From Escherichia phage humlepung: a stretch of 64,000 nt of DNA. A program made the translations under genes and the position numbers. Below the pieces are notes generated by a model, which was not told the DNA's origin, made no database searches, and saw only the letters and a program-made list of their open reading frames with translations. Positions 5,771-64,000 of the stretch are shown here, piece by piece (position 1 is the stretch's first letter; the number at the start of each line of letters is the position of its first letter). The DNA lies in sequence record MN850564.1. One strand, 5' to 3'.

Positions 5771-13768
<7,998 letters not shown>

Positions 13769-13770
13769 TA

Positions 13771-14919
13771 ATGGCAGTAGGTGAAATTCAAATTAGTGCC
13801 TTGCCTCAAGCAGCCTTACCAATTGACCTTAGTGATATCTTCCATCTTAAACAAGGTATCGAGGATAAAAGATGTACTCTTGAGCAATTACTTGCTCCAC
13901 ACTCAAGCCTAAGAAATAACCCTCATGGTGTTACTAAGACACAAATTGGTTTAGATAACGTTATTAATGCTCTCCAGTTAGTCGCTGAAAATAACTTATC
14001 AGACATTGTTAATGTAGCTGAGGCAAGAGCAAATCTACAGATTATGTCTTCAGAAGAGGTTAATAATCTTATTCAACAGCATATTGATGATAAGAGCAAC
14101 CCACACAATACTACTAAGGCACAGGTTGGGTTAAGCAATGTTCAGAACTGGGTGACATCTAACCTTTATAATGAGGATGCGGATAAGTATGCTACAGCAA
14201 GAGCAGTAAATAACTTGTACAAGGCTGTTCAGGCTTCTTATCCAGTAGGTACTATCCATCTTTCTATGAATCCTGCAAACCCCTCTACATATTTAATTTG
14301 TGGAGGTACTTGGGAGTTAGTCTCAAAAGGGAGAGCACTTGTAGGTTATGATAGTGATTCTAGGCCAGTTGGTTCAACGTTTGGTTCACAGACTACTGCA
14401 TTGACGGTTAATAACATCCCTGCACATACCCACTCAGTGTATGTCACTGGTGGTGGTCACACTCATGGTGCAACGGCCTCTATCAGTGCTTTTGATTATG
14501 GCACTAAAGGGACTACAACGTTTGACTACGGAACCAAGACCGTATCTACTTACGACTATGGCAACAGAACAACAAGTGCCGCTGGCTTAACACAAACAAC
14601 ATTCATTAACCGTGGCTATGCTGATGGTGGCTGGAGAGGTTTATCGGTTGAGGGGGCAAGCTATGACCCAAGAGCTACGTTGACAACAGCTAACAACCAC
14701 ACTCACTCTGTAGCAATTGGTGCGCATAATCATACGGTTGGTATTGGTGCTCACAGCCATTCTGTTGCAATTGGTTCCCACAGCCACTCAGCAACAGTAA
14801 CAGTAACCGGAGCAGGTGAGCATTCGCACTCTGGCACAACTGGTCCAACTGGTTCTGGTCAAGCATTTAGTGTTGAACAGCCATCCTTCGTATTGTATGT
14901 ATGGCAGAGAACAGCTTAA
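13771..14919 (+). CDS. tail fibre protein with C-terminal His-box (HxH) repeats
   Basis: 382 aa; repeated NPHxxTKAQ(I/V)GLxNV motifs; C-terminal HTHS/HNHT/HSHS repeats ending ...VWQRTA, paralogous to the next gene. Confidence 0.6.
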   Translation: MAVGEIQISALPQAALPIDLSDIFHLKQGIEDKRCTLEQLLAPHSSLRNNPHGVTKTQIGLDNVINALQLVAENNLSDIVNVAEARANLQIMSSEEVNNLIQQHIDDKSNPHNTTKAQVGLSNVQNWVTSNLYNEDADKYATARAVNNLYKAVQASYPVGTIHLSMNPANPSTYLICGGTWELVSKGRALVGYDSDSRPVGSTFGSQTTALTVNNIPAHTHSVYVTGGGHTHGATASISAFDYGTKGTTTFDYGTKTVSTYDYGNRTTSAAGLTQTTFINRGYADGGWRGLSVEGASYDPRATLTTANNHTHSVAIGAHNHTVGIGAHSHSVAIGSHSHSATVTVTGAGEHSHSGTTGPTGSGQAFSVEQPSFVLYVWQRTA

Positions 14920-20581: not shown

Positions 20582-20881
20582 TTAATCTGCCAACCTTAAA
20601 TTGAAATTAACACCAAATTTTTCACACACTTCCAACATATACTCAAGAGAGACATTGCCAGTGAGATGGATTATGTTGGATACGCGAGCCTGAGAGATAC
20701 CACAAATTTTAGCAACTTGCTCTTGAGAAAGACCTCTGGATTTAATCTCTCTCTTAAAACGATGTGCAACGAAGTCTCTCATTTCGTCTACACCCATTGG
20801 ACAAATATAACTCTCCATTTCAGCCTCTCTATCAGCCTCCCAATCATCTTGTGGAGCATAAGGGTCAAAAGCTTCATTCAT
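20582..20881 (-). CDS. helix-turn-helix (XRE-like) DNA-binding protein
   Basis: LSQEQVAKICGISQARVSNI HTH; start moved from track TTG (20911) to ATG 20881 with RBS. Confidence 0.5.
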   Translation of the reverse strand: MNEAFDPYAPQDDWEADREAEMESYICPMGVDEMRDFVAHRFKREIKSRGLSQEQVAKICGISQARVSNIIHLTGNVSLEYMLEVCEKFGVNFNLRLAD

Positions 20882-21086
20882 CTTTCTTCTTCCGTTTGCG
20901 TGAAGTGTCAATCAATGAATCTATGTTTGTAGCCCTAACCTTTTCACGTTCATCGTTAAGATAATCATCAAGAGCCTTTTCAATCTGTGAATCATCTTGG
21001 CAGATAACTGTAAAGACTGTAAAGCCATCTGTATCATCAATTATCTTACCATAACCGCTTCTGGGATGTAACTTTTTAAGAGCCAT
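20874..21086 (-). CDS. hypothetical protein
   Basis: 70 aa; ATG 21086; basic C-terminus. Confidence 0.45.
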   Translation of the reverse strand: MALKKLHPRSGYGKIIDDTDGFTVFTVICQDDSQIEKALDDYLNDEREKVRATNIDSLIDTSRKRKKKDE

Positions 21087-21471: not shown

Positions 21472-21589
21472 AATGACCTCAAAGTTATATTAAATTTTGT
21501 ATTACGTTGAGTATAAAAATAAGCTATAACACCTGACTTGTCAACAGATTTTATAGCTTATTTGGCAGATTTTTTATAAGGCTACTGCC

Positions 21590-21830
21590 ATCCTTCCATA
21601 CTATACCCTACCAAACCGTACCTAACCTCACCCTACCGAACCGAACCGTACCTCATTAAAAGACCCTCTTTAAAGACCTTTTAAAAAGGTAAGTCTCATT
21701 TTAATGTAGCTGAGACTAACTACCCATACCAAACAGCACCGCACTATGCCTTACCCCACCTCACCGAGCCTCGCCCCACATCACTTAAAAACCCTTTTCA
21801 AAGACTCTTAAGTGATGTTGGTGAGTACCC
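21590..21830. repeat. G-poor degenerate tandem repeat (2 units of ~105 bp) in a 560-bp non-coding gap
   Basis: Two units of ACC/CCT-rich sequence each followed by TTAAAA(G/A)ACCCT...AAAGAC; hairpin GTCTCA...TGAGAC between them. Confidence 0.5.
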
Positions 21831-22032
21831 GTTGGTTTATGCTGCTCAGTATACTCACCAAATTTTCTATGTCAACAACTTTTTATAAAAAAGTTCTGAT
21901 AGCTATATGTGTCACGAAACAAAAGATTGTAAACAAGACACCCATTGCAAAAGATGTGTCCAAAAGCTTACTTGCAACGTATGACAATACAAAGACAACC
22001 AGTATAAACAGAATGACTGTACTGAACATAGT

Positions 22033-24785: not shown

Positions 24786-27466
24786 GTCTTACCTACCTTA
24801 CCAGTGCCTGTAACAAGCGTCTTACTCTTTAATCCAAGATTTTTTGATGCTTGACCATACATTCTATCAATAATCTCCTTAACATCAGGTACATCTTTGG
24901 TTGGAACCTCTAAAGAGACCTCATCGTGGTAACTACAGACCCACCTAGCACCAATAGCTGGCTTCCTACCATTTAGAACTGTAAGCTTGCGCTCTGTTAA
25001 CTCCCTGTTAGCCAAGTTAATACCCTCATTCTGCACCTGCGCCTCACTGCCCATAAGTGTGTAATTCAATAACTTATGTGGAGATTTACACCATAACCAC
25101 GCCCCAGCAACCTTGATATAGCCACCTTTTGCAATTGCAGAAGTCTTTCCGAAAACCTCTTCAAGTGCTTTCTTAGTTGCTTTGAAGTCTTCCTCTAGTC
25201 TATCAAGCAGCTTTTTAATCTTAGGTAGACGCACAAAGTAAGTTTGTTTAGTCAATGCACCCTCTTCCGTAGATGATGCCTTGATAGTTTTTGCAAACTT
25301 CTCGTCTCCGGCTCCAAATAACAGGGCGTAGATGCCATTTTTGCTCTTCTTACGACCTTTTGTAATCTCGTGGAGAAGTTCCTCATCCTGTGTCTCCCTG
25401 CAACGAACAATATCCTCTTCTTTGTTAAGACCAAAGTAAATACTGTTCAGTGTATGCGCATCAGTCCCTGTGTAGACTTCATAGAGGTCATTTTCAGCAT
25501 CATAACGCAGATACTTGTCAGTTTCTGGGTTAAGATACTTGTCAAGATGTTTACAGTAGTATCTACCATCATCTTGCTTAGTGAACTCTACTGACTCTTT
25601 ACCCTCAGTTACCGCTTTAGTGAAGTCTTCATCACCCATAAAGTTACAAAGAAGAACTAGCTGGGCTGAGTTTTGGTCTACGGAGATGATATCTGTACCA
25701 TCTTCACAAGTCCACACCTCCCTCATAGGTGCTCCATAGACAGCAGCACCAGACGGTACGTTTACAATACCATATTGTGTCATACGTCCAGTTGAAGTGC
25801 CAAACACCATTGCACCAGCACTAAGGCGACCATCAGGACGAATCTGGTTCAACCAACCTTTTTCATCATCCTTTGAGTTCTCAATAGTTCTGCGTCGGTG
25901 CATCAAAGTATAGTACTTAGCAATCTTCTGTCCAAGCTCACCTTCAATCGTATCATAAGATGATTCAGTAAGTTTTGGTGAAGTACGGATTAAGCAAGGT
26001 TCAAGCAAATCTGTGTATTTCTTCACAGACCAGTTATGCTCGATGTACTGTACACCTTCATGTTCAACATAACTCAAACCACACCGCTCAACCATTTCCT
26101 GCCACTTAGGATGCTTTGTAATCATCTTTTTATTGTCTTTGAAACGACAAACTTTGATAGGGCGACCATCTGAGTCTTTCTTGTAATTCCAGTCATCTGG
26201 AATCCAACCAACTGATTTCAAGTAGTCTTTAACAACTGCTACCTGAGTCATACGAGAAACTTCAAACTCAATTGGTGTATATGGTGCATCAATCAAACCT
26301 GTGTAGCGACTTGACTCAAGTTCAAAGTGATTGACAACGTGACTGTTATAGTACTTCACAGTCTTGACTGTTTTTACTGGTTTCCAGTCTTTGCATTTTT
26401 TGCCAATCTTTGCATTCAACTCGTTGCAGATTGCACGAGCATCCTTCATCGCTACAAAACCCTCTTTGTACTCTTCACCAGTTACAGAGTTGGTTGGTGT
26501 ATAGCAATTTCTCTTTTCAATGTTAAAAATCTTTGTAGTTGGCTTACCAAATGGTTTGATTTCATAAGTCTGCATCTCACCATTACGTACCTGCTGACGA
26601 TACTTTGTCTTAGGGTACTTGGTAATTCTCTTCAGTCCATCTGCATGACCAAATGTTTCAACATACTCATTCCAAGCTTTTGCAAACTCTTCTCCAGTGA
26701 CTTTACCTTTGGTCTTAATAGTTGGAGGAAGATGTGGTTCAACCTCTGAAGCAAGTTCATTAGTCAATTTGTCAAGCTCCTTTACATGGAACTCCATAAG
26801 CTCCTTATCAGCTTTCCAACCATTGATAGCTTGCTGGCTCATCCAGAAAGATGTCTCTTTAGCTCGCATGTAAGTCTCATAAGTGTCTATACCACACTTC
26901 TTAAGCTTGAGATACTCGTTATCAAGTGCCCGTTTAGTTTTGGCATTAATACGGATATCTTCTACAACACGAGTGAAGATTTCTGCATTCCACACACCCC
27001 AATGTTCAATCTCTGGTTTACGGACACCAACACGAGCACCCCATGCAGCCAAACCATGAGCACCTTTATAACCCTTTGGGGTTGGCCTATCCATCCACTG
27101 AACACGAGACTGGATAAGAGAGTCCTGAAAGAAATTACTCCACGGTTTACACTTTGGATTATCAAAGTTCCATAAATCAGGTGCAATGTGATTGAAAACC
27201 CACCAGTCATAACCGAGACCATTATGGATGCAAAGACGTTTTGCCTTTAACGCAAATTCAACACCTTCACGTAAACCACCTTTGATGTACTTAGTGTACT
27301 TGTGACCGAGGATAGGCTCATCTGTAAAGACCCATACAGGTGGCTCTTCATCGTCAGATTTATAGTCTGCAAAGGCCATTACGTGAACTTTAGTGAACTC
27401 AAGGAGTAAACCATCAGTTTCTGTATCACCAACCAAATGTAAGTTTTTAAAATCTACGTTTTCCAT
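24767..27466 (-). CDS. DNA polymerase, family A (3-prime-5-prime exonuclease plus polymerase)
   Basis: 899 aa from ATG 27466 (RBS AGGGAG); DTETDGL exo motif, K...YG motif B (KNGIYALLFGAG), HDE motif C. Confidence 0.85.
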   Translation of the reverse strand: MENVDFKNLHLVGDTETDGLLLEFTKVHVMAFADYKSDDEEPPVWVFTDEPILGHKYTKYIKGGLREGVEFALKAKRLCIHNGLGYDWWVFNHIAPDLWNFDNPKCKPWSNFFQDSLIQSRVQWMDRPTPKGYKGAHGLAAWGARVGVRKPEIEHWGVWNAEIFTRVVEDIRINAKTKRALDNEYLKLKKCGIDTYETYMRAKETSFWMSQQAINGWKADKELMEFHVKELDKLTNELASEVEPHLPPTIKTKGKVTGEEFAKAWNEYVETFGHADGLKRITKYPKTKYRQQVRNGEMQTYEIKPFGKPTTKIFNIEKRNCYTPTNSVTGEEYKEGFVAMKDARAICNELNAKIGKKCKDWKPVKTVKTVKYYNSHVVNHFELESSRYTGLIDAPYTPIEFEVSRMTQVAVVKDYLKSVGWIPDDWNYKKDSDGRPIKVCRFKDNKKMITKHPKWQEMVERCGLSYVEHEGVQYIEHNWSVKKYTDLLEPCLIRTSPKLTESSYDTIEGELGQKIAKYYTLMHRRRTIENSKDDEKGWLNQIRPDGRLSAGAMVFGTSTGRMTQYGIVNVPSGAAVYGAPMREVWTCEDGTDIISVDQNSAQLVLLCNFMGDEDFTKAVTEGKESVEFTKQDDGRYYCKHLDKYLNPETDKYLRYDAENDLYEVYTGTDAHTLNSIYFGLNKEEDIVRCRETQDEELLHEITKGRKKSKNGIYALLFGAGDEKFAKTIKASSTEEGALTKQTYFVRLPKIKKLLDRLEEDFKATKKALEEVFGKTSAIAKGGYIKVAGAWLWCKSPHKLLNYTLMGSEAQVQNEGINLANRELTERKLTVLNGRKPAIGARWVCSYHDEVSLEVPTKDVPDVKEIIDRMYGQASKNLGLKSKTLVTGTGKVGKTWYAVH

Positions 27467-27723
27467 TTTTACTCCCTCTAAAATCATTAACCTCATACAT
27501 TACTGCAAAAAATTATAAAAAGCAAGTTGACAATGTACTTGACAAGGTGTTAATCTTTGCGAAGTGGGTTTTTACTTAAAAGGTCACTTAACAGTTTAAC
27601 TATACAGATACTTTAAAACTCTTAAAAGATTATTTAATAGCTTTTAAAAAGCTTTAAAGTATAACGTATAGAATACGTTAAGATAAAAGATTAAAACTTA
27701 ATAGTTACTTAAAAGAGGCTTAC
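27467..27723. promoter_or_regulatory. divergent intergenic control region with palindromic operator-like sites
   Basis: Between divergent pol and plus-strand operons; TTGACA x2; palindromes AGCTTTTAAAAAGCT and AACGTATAGAATACGTT (the latter contains a TATAGAAT -10-like element). Confidence 0.5.
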
Positions 27724-28146
27724 ATGCAGAAAATGTTTGTTCACCCAGACATAGCTGACTTTGTTAGAGCTTTGCAGAAGTTGGAAGAACTTGACATTGC
27801 TGCTCAGCGGGAATATGCTCACCATCACAGGAGAATGGTTGATATACAACATGAAATAGAGTTGTCTGAAAACTATGAAGATGACTTAAAATGCTCTGTA
27901 TTTGAGCATATGAAAGATGTTGCTACAGCGAGACGTAAAGCTAAAGACACAGTTGCTTTACTAGATTCTCTTAAAAAGAGGTTGCAAAGTGGTACAGACC
28001 TGTGTAATCTAGCGTCACTGATTAACGATGTTGAAACTTCTTGGGATAGGCACTATTATCCACGTTCTGAAAAGACACTTGACTTTTCTTCATCCGAAAA
28101 CTTAAAATGTTCTAGAAAGAAACTTAACCAACTGAGAGAGAAATAA
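27724..28146 (+). CDS. hypothetical early protein
   Basis: 140 aa; RBS AGAGG. Confidence 0.5.
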   Translation: MQKMFVHPDIADFVRALQKLEELDIAAQREYAHHHRRMVDIQHEIELSENYEDDLKCSVFEHMKDVATARRKAKDTVALLDSLKKRLQSGTDLCNLASLINDVETSWDRHYYPRSEKTLDFSSSENLKCSRKKLNQLREK

Positions 28147-32010: not shown

Positions 32011-32039
32011 TTGACAAAGATTGATAGATTCTATAGAAT
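32011..32039 (+). promoter_or_regulatory. sigma70-like promoter TTGACA-N17-TAGAAT
   Basis: Exact -35, 17-nt spacer, TAGAAT -10; same architecture as the promoter at 32350. Confidence 0.5.
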
Positions 32040-43358: not shown

Positions 43359-43378
43359 CCTTATGTAAAACTTGACAA

Positions 43379-43417
43379 GGTGATGTGGGTCTTGATAGGC
43401 TTACATCACCTTTTTTA
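43379..43417 (+). terminator. rho-independent terminator
   Basis: GGTGATGT...ACATCACC hairpin followed by T6. Confidence 0.55.
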
Positions 43418-62444: not shown

Positions 62445-62573
62445 TCAATAACTTACAAAAAACTTTTAAAAAAGTGTTGACAATACCCCTTGACATTGGT
62501 AACTTTGTTCGAGGGGGTTTATCTAAAAGGGATTCACTTAAAAGATTCTTTATAGATAAGCTTAAAAAATTGC

Positions 62574-62663
62574 TTGCAATCAGCTATCAAAACAAGTAAA
62601 TTACTAATCAACGGGAGGGATGACCTCCCCACTAAATAAAATCCTTAAACTAGGAGAGTCAAA
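62574..62663 (+). promoter_or_regulatory. cassette type 1 (TTGCAA-N17-TAAATT, hairpin, leader)
   Basis: Hairpin GGGAGGGATGACCTCCCC; additional TTGACA motifs at 62475-62495 upstream. Confidence 0.6.
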
Positions 62664-63194
62664 ATGAACAAGTTTAAAGCTATCAACTTCATTCGTTCAA
62701 ATGCTGTAATGTCAAAACCTGTAAAAGACACATACGAATTTCGCTGCAATGGGGTACACTTTGCAACCATCACTAAGTCAGAAAACGGGGCTTATTACGT
62801 ACATCGTCGTAATGTTGCAACCGTTGTAGTCTCTCACTTTATGCAAGCTGTAGCGGAGTTATTACCGTTATTCTTAGAGATTTATCTAGGTGAGTGTAAA
62901 AACGTTCGTAACCACGTTAAAAACCTTTTAAACGGTTATAAAATGGCTTATGAACGTTCTATCAAGTCCTTGAACAAGTTCTATAAATCCCCTGTAAATA
63001 CTGTTTCAATGGCTTACACTGTAAGCGGTGAGTTGGTTAGCCTCTTCGAAGTAGAAGAAATTGAACTATATGACTCACGTCCTAGCGGTTACTCTAAGAC
63101 ACTGGGAGAAGGATTATCTTTCAATATCAAGAACTTAGAAAAAACTTTAAAAGATATTGAAAAAGATATTGACGAGACAATCAAAAGTCTGTAA
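62664..63194 (+). CDS. cassette gene L, hypothetical
   Basis: 176 aa. Confidence 0.5.
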   Translation: MNKFKAINFIRSNAVMSKPVKDTYEFRCNGVHFATITKSENGAYYVHRRNVATVVVSHFMQAVAELLPLFLEIYLGECKNVRNHVKNLLNGYKMAYERSIKSLNKFYKSPVNTVSMAYTVSGELVSLFEVEEIELYDSRPSGYSKTLGEGLSFNIKNLEKTLKDIEKDIDETIKSL

Positions 63195-63509: not shown

Positions 63510-63547
63510 ACGCCGCAACGGGGCTAAATAGCCCCAGATACCTTTAC

Positions 63548-63575
63548 AGCCCCTTTCCCATAGGGGCTTTTTTAC
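63548..63575 (+). terminator. rho-independent terminator closing the cassette array
   Basis: AGCCCC...GGGGCT followed by T6; preceded by a type-2-like hairpin GGGGCTAAATAGCCCCAGATA. Confidence 0.55.
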
Positions 63576-64000
63576 GTCTTATCAAATCCCTTATACAACC
63601 CTTTCCCTTTCCTTTCCAGAATCTTATCAGACCTTAAAAAGCAATAACTCTATAGTCTACTCTATAGCCTTTTATCAAATCAACTTAAATATAAGCCCAT
63701 AACCCGAAAGGGAAGGGCAACCGTTTAAACGCTCTATAAAGCTCTATAACAGCCTTATCAACCTAACTTAAGGGATTGCATTAACTCACCCTAAAAAGCC
63801 CTTTATAAAGCTTCCCAGAGACTTAAAAGAATCTTATAAGGGTGTAAGCTTTATTATCTCGTTAGCTATCTTGTGAACTACTAAACAAGCCCCTTGATAG
63901 TAACTGAAAAGTATGTTATAGGGGCTTTAAAGTTACTTTGAAGTGGCTTAAAAGTTACGTAAATGCTAGCCCCCTTAACATTTTCTTAACAATTTCTTAA
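63576..64000. repeat. non-coding repeat-rich region (CTTATCA x5, CTCTATA x4, AAGTTAC x2)
   Basis: No ORF of 60 aa or more on either strand; short direct repeats and pyrimidine-rich tracts. Confidence 0.5.

Follow-up and report, generated by a model that had tools for sequence, protein, structure and literature searches.

The sequence considered here is a 64,000-nucleotide (nt) stretch of Escherichia phage humlepung (MN850564.1), hereafter the window, and the element in question is a 257-bp gap (27467-27723) between the leftward DNA polymerase operon and the rightward replication operon. A 601-bp query spanning the gap matched 257 phage records, 53 of them at least 99% identical, including Salmonella phage Felix O1 and many Escherichia, Salmonella, and Shigella Felixounavirus isolates, and the sequence assigns the window to Felixounavirus (Felix O1-like phages). 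In Felix O1, the gap is flanked by leftward open reading frame (ORF) 96, which encodes the DNA polymerase, and by rightward ORF97, which encodes a hypothetical protein and is followed by genes for deoxynucleoside monophosphate kinase, T7-like primase/helicase, exonuclease, and ribonucleotide reductase. The gap was already taken as a divergent control region by Whichard et al. in 2010, who did not find sigma-70-like sequences or promoters in it (PMC3185647). The general role of the region had thus been assumed before, and one promoter was already annotated in a GenBank record. New in this study are a conserved candidate for the leftward promoter, a tandem -35 cassette present in three copies, and a 96-nt leader hairpin with three-way covariation.

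The ATG of the polymerase gene (27466-27464, - strand) and its Shine-Dalgarno sequence, AGAGGGAG (27479-27472), together occupy 27464-27479. The same start is used in the Moogle, SUSP2, and Sf13 records, with the ribosome-binding site annotated in that of Moogle, and the sequence upstream of 27466 is not coding, because the alignment there carries indels. Based on the Shine-Dalgarno sequence, the start annotated in other genera, and the upstream indels, the gap is therefore non-coding and runs from 27467 to 27723, the coordinates given in the earlier note on this sequence. Annotation of the polymerase start is not consistent among records: RefSeq Felix O1 uses an ATG 21 nt upstream (= 27487), and the longest ORF runs from 27496. 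These longer versions would put coding sequence over the proposed start of the leftward promoter; 27466 is favoured as the start by its Shine-Dalgarno sequence and by conservation between genera. On the right side, the rightward replication operon begins with the ORF97 homologue, whose start region at 27713-27726 (+ strand) contains the Shine-Dalgarno sequence AAGAGG at 27713-27718 and the ATG at 27724. The gap itself holds no ORF, tRNA-like element, or terminator, and an Rfam covariance-model search of 27300-27900 gave no match at E <= 1.

The gap is both AT-rich and unusually well conserved. Its G+C content is 26%, and that of the 164 bp after the rightward promoter 24%, as compared to 39% for the window. 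Across three genera (Felixounavirus, Suspvirus, and Mooglevirus), the mean column identity of the gap was 91%, versus ~79% over a 1.2-kb stretch that consists mostly of flanking coding sequence. For a 216-bp core, 170 of 274 matching phage records are at least 99% identical, and identity across genera is 84-89%. Conservation above that of the coding flanks supports a function of the gap, and is stronger evidence than the odds of finding palindromes in it.

Both TTGACA motifs that had been noticed in the gap are present, on the + strand, at 27527-27532 and 27539-27544, against an expectation of ~0.21 copies per 257 bp of this strand. The first is the -35 element of a deeply conserved rightward sigma-70 promoter, P_R (27527-27556, + strand), which has an 18-nt spacer and the -10 hexamer TAATCT (27551-27556). 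Our own scan found a TG at 27548-27549 in the spacer, making this a TG-extended -10 (TGt), and the start is predicted at ~27562-27564. P_R conforms to the sigma-70 pattern (a TTGACA-like -35, a spacer of 16-19 bp, and T1, A2, and T6 in the -10, with or without a TG extension), and was missed by a stricter promoter scan because its -10 matches the consensus at only 3/6 positions. The record of phage AYO145A annotates a + strand promoter corresponding to window 27527-27556. The arrangement TTGACA-N17/18-TAnnnT is kept with the -10 hexamers TAGTCT in Susp and Moogle phages, TAGGCT in Wc4-1, TACATT in phiEa104, and TAATGT in SarahDanielle, and the counterpart in sequence L040 is TTGACT-17-TATCCT. 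This pattern extends from Felixounavirus to Kolesnikvirus, Pectobacterium phage Wc4-1, and Hafnia phage SarahDanielle, and is found in four distant Ounavirinae with otherwise unalignable gaps (Wc4-1, phiEa104, SarahDanielle, and an IMG/VR contig).

A candidate leftward sigma-70 promoter, P_L (27497-27525, - strand), was picked out of the alignment by eye; neither promoter scan scored it above threshold. It consists of the -35 TTGCTT (27525-27520), a 17-nt spacer, and the -10 TAATGT (27502-27497), with a predicted start near 27490. The -35 is invariant in 22 aligned sequences of the three genera (AAGCAA at 27520-27525 on the + strand, abutting the -35 of P_R), the -10 keeps TAnnGT (TAATGT, TAAGGT, TAGGGT, or TAGTGT), and the spacer varies in sequence while its length is fixed at 17 nt in 22/22. 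We propose P_L as the polymerase promoter because this is the conservation pattern expected of a working promoter, and we infer from its sequence that it may drive the polymerase operon. These results support the suggestion of a divergent control region between the leftward polymerase and rightward replication operons. With regard to timing, transcripts of ORF96 (polymerase), ORF101, and ORF105 are seen by reverse transcription PCR within 5 min, and the Felix O1 genome paper notes no sigma or appropriator homologue (PMC3185647). Felix O1 can be produced in E. coli cell-free extract (10.1101/2023.12.07.570578), which is consistent with promoters for the host polymerase.

The second TTGACA (CTTGACAAGGTG, 27539-27549, + strand) lies inside the P_R spacer as part of a tandem -35 cassette. 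It was rejected as an independent -35, as there is no TAnnnT 16-18 bp downstream of it here and none at the right distance in the paralogues. A pattern scan of the window and the remaining Felix O1 sequence found exactly three copies of the tandem module TTGACAAnnnACTTGACAAGGT, in this gap, at window 62477, and in the gap between genes 40 and 41 of Felix O1 (P41, L042 9516); tandem TTGACA copies are also present in SarahDanielle. In each of the three cassettes, an A-tract lies upstream, the first TTGACA is followed at 17-18 bp by a TAnnnT -10, a CTTAAAAG-type box stands near +12, and the leader is more stable than its shuffles, with z-scores of -2.9 for the window 62477 leader and -3.4 for that of Felix O1 gene 41. 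The box is ACTTAAAAGG at 27574-27583 (+ strand, ~+12 of the predicted P_R transcript) in this gap, the same ACTTAAAAGG starting at ~+13 in the gene-41 leader, and TCTAAAAGGG at ~+9 together with ACTTAAAAGA at ~+24 in the 62477 leader.

The gene 40/41 region is a direct paralogue of the gap and is conserved at 93% across genera. Like the gap, it has back-to-back promoters between opposed operons, with TTGACA-type -35 elements, TAnnnT -10 elements, and upstream A-tracts as in divergent sigma-70 early promoters, and it shares the tandem TTGACAAnnnACTTGACAAGGT, the +12 ACTTAAAAGG box, and a hairpin-rich leader. Counted from the sequences, the two -35 boxes are 1 bp apart here versus ~30 bp apart in the 40/41 gap. 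Unlike the usual divergent early promoters, this gap has a second TTGACA in the spacer without a matching -10. The cassette at window 62477-62600 (TTGACAATACCCCTTGACA, -10 TAACTT) lies upstream of an ORF at 62664-63194 and carries CTAAAAGG/CTTAAAAG boxes in addition to its leader hairpin. The second TTGACA shares the extended -35 word TTGACAAGGTG with two further promoters, at 43372-43401 (+ strand) and 24285-24257 (- strand), whose -10 hexamers are TAGGCT and TACCTT, respectively.

Several other promoter-like sequences in or near the gap were set aside or remain side observations. The AYO145A record also annotates a promoter on the - strand (window 27517-27485), with a TATAAT that occurs only in Felixounavirus and has no -35. 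A T4 middle-promoter reading (GCTTTA-N12-TAGAAT, with a MotA-box-like element) occurs 17 times against 6 expected; we see no MotA-like promoter class here, because the excess comes from four copies of one repeat directly on ribosome-binding sites. A weak conserved - strand TTTTAA-17-TATAGT runs from 27627 to 27599, its conservation being inseparable from that of the hairpin described below, and a TTGACA-17-TATGCT with 10/12 matches lies at 27791-27819 (+ strand), 67 nt into the ORF97 coding sequence. The -35 context of the latter (AACTTGACATTG) repeats that of P_R, and its conservation is inseparable from that of the ORF97 protein.

Two palindromes had been proposed as operators in the gap. 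Both are present: palindrome 1, AGCTTTTAAAAAGCT (27639-27653), has 7-bp arms and one central base, and palindrome 2, AACGTATAGAATACGTT (27663-27679; AACGTAT-AGA-ATACGTT), has 7-bp arms around a non-symmetric AGA centre and extends to 8-bp arms at 27662-27680. By composition alone, the pair is only mildly unusual; in 20,000 first-order Markov simulations of the gap, at least one such palindrome occurred in 24% and at least two in 3.6%, and the window-wide rate of such palindromes is 0.12 per 257 bp. Relative to the predicted P_R start, palindrome 1 lies at ~+77 to +91 and palindrome 2 at ~+101 to +117; both are ~80-120 bp downstream of the P_R -10 and >110 bp from P_L, and neither overlaps a promoter core. 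The -10-like element TATAGAAT that had been noted within palindrome 2 is indeed there, at 27667-27674, and forms no credible promoter, since it has no usable -35 (the best hexamer 16-18 bp upstream, TAAAAA, matches at 3/6).

Downstream of P_R, RNAalifold predicted a 96-nt imperfect inverted repeat (27587-27682, + strand) with four helices: A (27587-92/27677-82), B (27600-05/27666-71), C (27611-17/27653-59), and D (27622-28/27641-47). The 100-nt stretch 27585-27684 folds at -23.3 kcal/mol on the + strand (z = -4.9), with 0/200 shuffles as stable, and the opposite strand folds at z = -5.8. In the alignment, 98% of cells are paired in the long hairpin, with two covarying pairs in helix A; a control with slid partners gave 11-62% of cells paired, versus 98-99% for the true partners. 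Variable columns are concentrated outside the helices of the long hairpin (7/52 paired versus 17/44 unpaired columns, Fisher p = 0.008), and a local model made of the two palindromes shows no such concentration of variation in loops (p = 0.8). The leader thus shows stability beyond shuffles, compensatory changes, and substitutions mainly in loops, as structured RNAs do. The leader of the distant phage Wc4-1 is also hit by a covariance model of this hairpin (E ~0.006), but scores of this kind are inflated by boxes that are AT-rich and self-complementary, and the support is therefore soft. A metagenome scan for variants with the pattern CTTAAAAGAN{3,6}TTAATAGC, which is too loose, returned 120 loci, 120/120 of them chance matches; ACTATACAGNNNCTTTAAAA is a possible stricter anchor.

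The two palindromes differ in their relation to this hairpin. Palindrome 1 covers the internal loop next to helix D as well as the 3' arm of that helix, and one of seven boxes of the CTT(T)AA(A)AG type falls within it. Its 3' arm has changed independently in AYO145A and SUSP2 (A27648G), in ESh19 (G27651T), and in Sf13/L033. Alone it folds at -3.5 kcal/mol (z = -0.4), no better than shuffles, and it is absent from the minimum-energy fold of the window sequence. It is therefore likely that palindrome 1 is an incidental by-product of helix D and its loop. Loose matches to it number 21 in the window against 6 expected, and a palindrome-1-like sequence, ACCTTTTAAAAAGGT, lies at 21676-21690.

Palindrome 2, on the other hand, is 100% paired in all alignable sequences and shows two compensatory pair changes over three sequence states. 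Alone it folds at -5.8 kcal/mol (z = -4.0), and its arms, E2 (27663-27669) and E3, could form a local 7-bp hairpin with a 3-nt loop. RNAalifold gives E3 an alternative partner, E1 (CTTAAC, 27587-27592), 85 nt upstream, and the pairing E1:E3 shows the same two compensatory changes as E2:E3. In Felixounavirus, E1 is CTTAAC, E2 AACGTAT, and E3 ATACGTTAAG (local pair AACGTAT..ATACGTT; state F); in Suspvirus and the Sf13 group, CTTTAC, TACGTAT, and ATACGTAAAG (local pair TACGTAT..ATACGTA; state S); and in the Moogle group, CTTTAT, TATGTAT, and ATACATAAAG (local pair TATGTAT..ATACATA; state M). The three segments change together with no exception in the 22 sequences. Constrained folding gives the long form an advantage of 3-7 kcal/mol in the Felix and Susp states and the local palindrome-2 form one of 1-3 kcal/mol in the Moogle state, and the central hairpin is retained in both folds.

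Concerted change of this kind could reflect base pairing or a DNA word shared by binding sites. E1 is an exact reverse copy of CTGTTAAG, and we therefore checked whether E1 and E3 follow the specificity of a repeat-binding protein. They do not behave as repeat copies co-evolving with such a protein, since the consensus of the CTGTTAAG/CTTGTTAG arrays is the same in all three states (a Susp-state and a Moogle-state phage were compared), including those in which E1 and E3 have changed. In a search of the 64-kb window, beyond which lie ~22 kb of the genome, palindrome 2 has no second copy, the best other matches having two mismatches, and its 25 loose matches are within chance (19 +/- 4 expected). 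Moreover, the recognition helix of the phage helix-turn-helix (HTH) protein, ISQARVSNII, is unchanged between phages with ACGTAT and ATGTAT half-sites, its sole change with respect to palindrome state being A-to-S in Michonne. The single-copy palindrome 2, the constant recognition helix, and the constant repeat consensus favour pairing of the segments over a shared DNA word.

The arrays with CTGTTAAG belong to a ~1.6-kb ORF-free region after a terminator (window 63540-64000 onward; Felix O1 NC_005282 ~12370-13925, L042:370-1925), which came up through the hairpin covariance search. Its repeats are iteron-like, with TGTTAAG x12, CTGTTAAG x8, and CTTGTTAG x8, often 11 bp apart, and it also holds a hairpin formed by three CTTAACA copies and three inverted copies. 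The array and its consensus are present in Moogle and pEC-M719 as well, and are not described in the Felix O1 genome paper. It is plausible that this region is an origin or another protein-binding array.

We lean towards the view that the gap is a divergent early sigma-70 control region joined to a conserved, structured rightward leader that acts in cis, with the palindromes as parts of the leader. This view builds on what was observed or computed, namely the sequence anatomy, conservation, covariation, and folding energy against shuffles. In the proposed scheme, host sigma-70 RNA polymerase would read the compact gap from back-to-back promoters with abutting -35 boxes, P_L driving the polymerase operon leftward from ~27490 and P_R, with its extended -10, driving the replication operon rightward from ~27563. 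The ~160 bp between 27563 and 27723 would be transcribed as the AU-rich 5' leader of the rightward mRNA, and this leader would fold into a conserved hairpin system in which helices C and D make up the central hairpin. The base of the hairpin could be closed in two mutually exclusive ways, by E1:E3 together with helix B, or by the local E2:E3 pair, i.e., palindrome 2. That the promoters fire, that transcription starts at the predicted positions, that the structure forms in RNA rather than in DNA, and that it has a downstream function are inferred from these features. By analogy with known leaders, the leader most likely acts in cis on its transcript, through processing or stability (e.g., as an RNase III-type site), through ORF97 translation, or through terminator read-through, and a role as a DNA operator is unlikely.

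A number of points weigh against this reading. The -10 hexamers are weak (TAATCT 3/6, TAATGT 4/6), and the -35 of P_L matches in TTG only (3/6). Each covarying pair represents about two evolutionary events, because only three sequence states exist. The helices are made of self-complementary CTTTAAAG-type boxes, and a conserved array of protein-binding boxes would therefore look alike, with helices and variable loops. The reverse strand folds better than the + strand, which leaves both strands, and DNA as well as RNA, as candidates for the folded form. The two informative wobble cases disagree, Moogle having C:A on the + strand and G:U on the - strand, and AYO145A/SUSP2 having U:G on the + strand. 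In the most distant phages, the leaders show weak structure or none that is significant (phiEa104, z = -0.5; L040, z = -1.8), and a translational mechanism is not obvious because the Shine-Dalgarno sequence of ORF97 lies outside the hairpin. In a literature search, we found no transcriptome or start-site map of Felix O1-like phages; a CRISPRi-ART screen of SUSP1 concerns genes and not the gap element.

The leader may be compared with the nutL/nutR sites of lambda (boxA plus a boxB hairpin), the putL/putR sites of HK022, the early RNase III hairpins of T7, and the RNase III site of the lambda N leader. A nut site comprises a boxA consensus and a boxB with a 5-bp stem and a pentaloop, and works with an N-like protein. 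Like these elements, the segment described here is a conserved structured part of a 5' leader just downstream of divergent early promoters. It also heads a long operon with intrinsic terminators, e.g., after ORF98, and like RNase III substrates, it has an imperfect helix of ~26 bp broken by internal loops. Unlike all of them, it has no sequence similarity to the lambda, HK022, and T7 elements and no Rfam match, and is very AU-rich; it differs further from nut and put in the alternative pairing of E3 with E1 or E2, and from nut in a local hairpin with a 7-bp stem and 3-nt loop. No CGCTCTTA-like boxA was seen by eye in the leader, no motif search having been run, and no N-like or Q-like factor was identified, no search for N-like factors having been made. 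The terminators of Felix O1 are listed in Table 2 of its genome paper, which states that the passage of terminators and the timing of transcription are not known (PMC3185647).

If the leader does act in processing, antitermination, or switching, it would explain early expression in a phage without its own RNA polymerase. Felix O1 is in wide use for typing and biocontrol of Salmonella and has hundreds of relatives, and a leader element, if real, matters for phage engineering because insertions in the gap would not be neutral. Should there be only promoters and a stabilising leader, the result would be ordinary, yet existing annotation would be corrected. In either case, the analysis yields testable coordinates for both early promoters, the three-copy cassette, and the leader hairpin.

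More speculatively, and with a low probability in our estimate, the leader could be a cis-acting RNA switch in which E3 (27677-27682) pairs with either E1 (27587-27592) or E2 (27663-27669). The fate of the ~35-kb rightward early transcript would then depend on how the two folds are balanced, the controlled step being perhaps terminator read-through, RNase processing, or shut-off; the balance could be struck during transcription or by a factor of the phage or host. A switch would be an RNA-based answer to the questions of terminator passage and timing in Felix O1-like phages, and the gene 41 and 62477 leaders would be further members.

An operator explanation along the lines of the earlier note, in which a dimeric phage regulator would bind the DNA of palindrome 2, and perhaps of palindrome 1 as well, and time early transcription as a roadblock or by looping, seems to us about as doubtful as the switch. 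A candidate regulator exists: window 20582-20911 encodes an XRE-type HTH protein (HTH_3, Pfam E = 6e-10; transcriptional regulator in PHROG), which is the only annotated regulator of the window, and the mechanism of transcription timing in Felix O1 is not known (PMC3185647). As with operators of the Cro/CI type, palindrome 2 has a classic geometry, 17 bp long with 7-bp arms and half-site centres 10 bp, or one helical turn, apart, and both of its arms change symmetrically across genera. Operators, however, are expected to overlap or abut a promoter and to recur, in addition to having dyad symmetry over 14-20 bp, and only the symmetry is found here. The centre of palindrome 2 is at ~+108 from the P_R start and ~170-180 bp from P_L, and therefore overlaps neither promoter; it is single in 64 kb, with loose matches at chance level. 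Its variation is in step with that of the third segment at 27587-27592, which a two-arm operator does not need, and the recognition helix of the regulator stays essentially the same in all three palindrome states. Palindrome 1 has lost its symmetry in three lineages, and TATAGAAT has no -35. An operator role of the palindromes is not supported, and nothing in the analysis shows the role in timing a switch between transcription classes that had been expected of the gap.

The possibility that the leader is an array of double-stranded CTT(T)AA(A)AG-type sites for an architectural or regulatory protein of host or phage, with its hairpin potential incidental, we rate slightly below the operator. 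Seven such boxes fall within 170 bp, the densest cluster in the window (shuffle mean 0.27, maximum 3), often with a spacing of 10-12 bp; related palindromic boxes such as TTCTTTAAAGAA are present in the leaders of all Ounavirinae examined, and the box recurs at ~+12 in the leaders of the two paralogous cassettes. CTTAAAAG shows a ~9-fold excess on the + strand (17 found versus ~2 expected, an estimate from base composition rather than a tool result). Independent boxes would not be expected to change as E1, E2, and E3 do, in concert and to sequences that differ yet are complementary. E2 is not a box, and other boxes drift independently, e.g., from CTTAAAAG to CTTAATAG. No protein that binds the boxes was identified, and a DNA-binding fold is not seen in ORF97. 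The ORF97 homologue belongs to PHROG 4039, of unknown function, and has no Pfam match; as a DNA-binding autoregulator it was rejected, with only 9 homologues found and 0/9 carrying a Pfam domain. Its AlphaFold model (predicted local distance difference test, 72.5) is a long helical hairpin, and a Foldseek search of this model against the PDB gave no match below E = 0.1 and no informative fold.

A shade less probable again is a replication element at the DNA level, either an origin activated by transcription or a single-strand hairpin serving as entry site for the T7-like primase-helicase. The primary origin of T7 consists of the tandem promoters 1.1A/1.1B and an AT-rich region, and T4 oriF/oriG of a promoter and a DNA unwinding element. 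The gap resembles them in having tandem promoter-like boxes followed by a conserved AT-rich stretch (P_R, then the 164 bp of low G+C content) between T7-like polymerase and primase/helicase operons; its conservation is above that of the flanking coding sequence, the hairpin is possible on both strands, and a local minimum of the cumulative GC skew falls at ~27.5 kb. Unlike in those origins, the second TTGACA is not a separate promoter, and the cassette is repeated at non-replication loci, so that a promoter class fits the two other promoter-plus-leader loci better. The skew minimum coincides with the switch in gene orientation, which GC skew tracks in this genome, and is therefore uninformative. 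An initiator protein is not known, and the 1.6-kb CTGTTAAG/CTTGTTAG repeat region is a much stronger origin-like candidate. Finally, a chance origin of the palindromes in AT-rich spacer DNA, with no function of their own, is very improbable as a general account. The simulated frequencies and the shuffle-like folding of palindrome 1 make it likely for that palindrome; for palindrome 2 and the long hairpin, the compensatory changes and the hairpin z-score largely refute it, and a core conserved above the coding flanks within and across genera also speaks against it.

The preferred reading, a promoter pair with a cis-acting leader, invites comparison with one more system. T4-type phages reportedly carry promoter-early stem-loops (PeSL), which are repeated cassettes of a sigma-70 promoter and a stem-loop, several per genome. 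The three tandem cassettes are similar in that a sigma-70 promoter is repeated together with a stem-loop-forming sequence, but the stem-loops here are in the transcribed leader and not around the promoter, and there are only three copies, flanking core operons rather than in hyperplastic regions. Closer to PeSL than the gap element are five + strand cassettes at 58.2-61.1 kb of the window (58242, 58622, 59223, 60294, and 61089), each TTTACA-N17-TAAAGT (or TATCTT/TAAGAT) upstream of a small early gene, with a GGGGCTTA...TAAGCCCC stem-loop over the spacer and -10. The 57-bp direct repeats that Whichard et al. listed without interpretation resemble two of these TTTACA cassettes (PMC3185647).

A second promoter family on the + strand (57761, 60788, 62010, and 63169) has the form TTGACx-N17-TAAATT or TAATAT, with a conserved ATCAACGG at the predicted start, and the 39-bp direct repeat of the Felix O1 paper is similar. 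Within the ORF102 equivalent lies a near-consensus TTGACA-17-TAGAAT (32011-32039), whose -10 is within a perfect 12-bp palindrome, ATTCTATAGAAT (32028-32039); by position alone, this palindrome is a better candidate for an operator over a promoter than palindrome 1 or 2. On the - strand, a 560-bp intergenic region at 21472-22032, from the ligase gene to the ORF87 homologue, carries sigma-70-like promoters at 21875 and 21544, two G/T-rich blocks of GGT-type repeats, and the palindrome ACCTTTTAAAAAGGT mentioned above.

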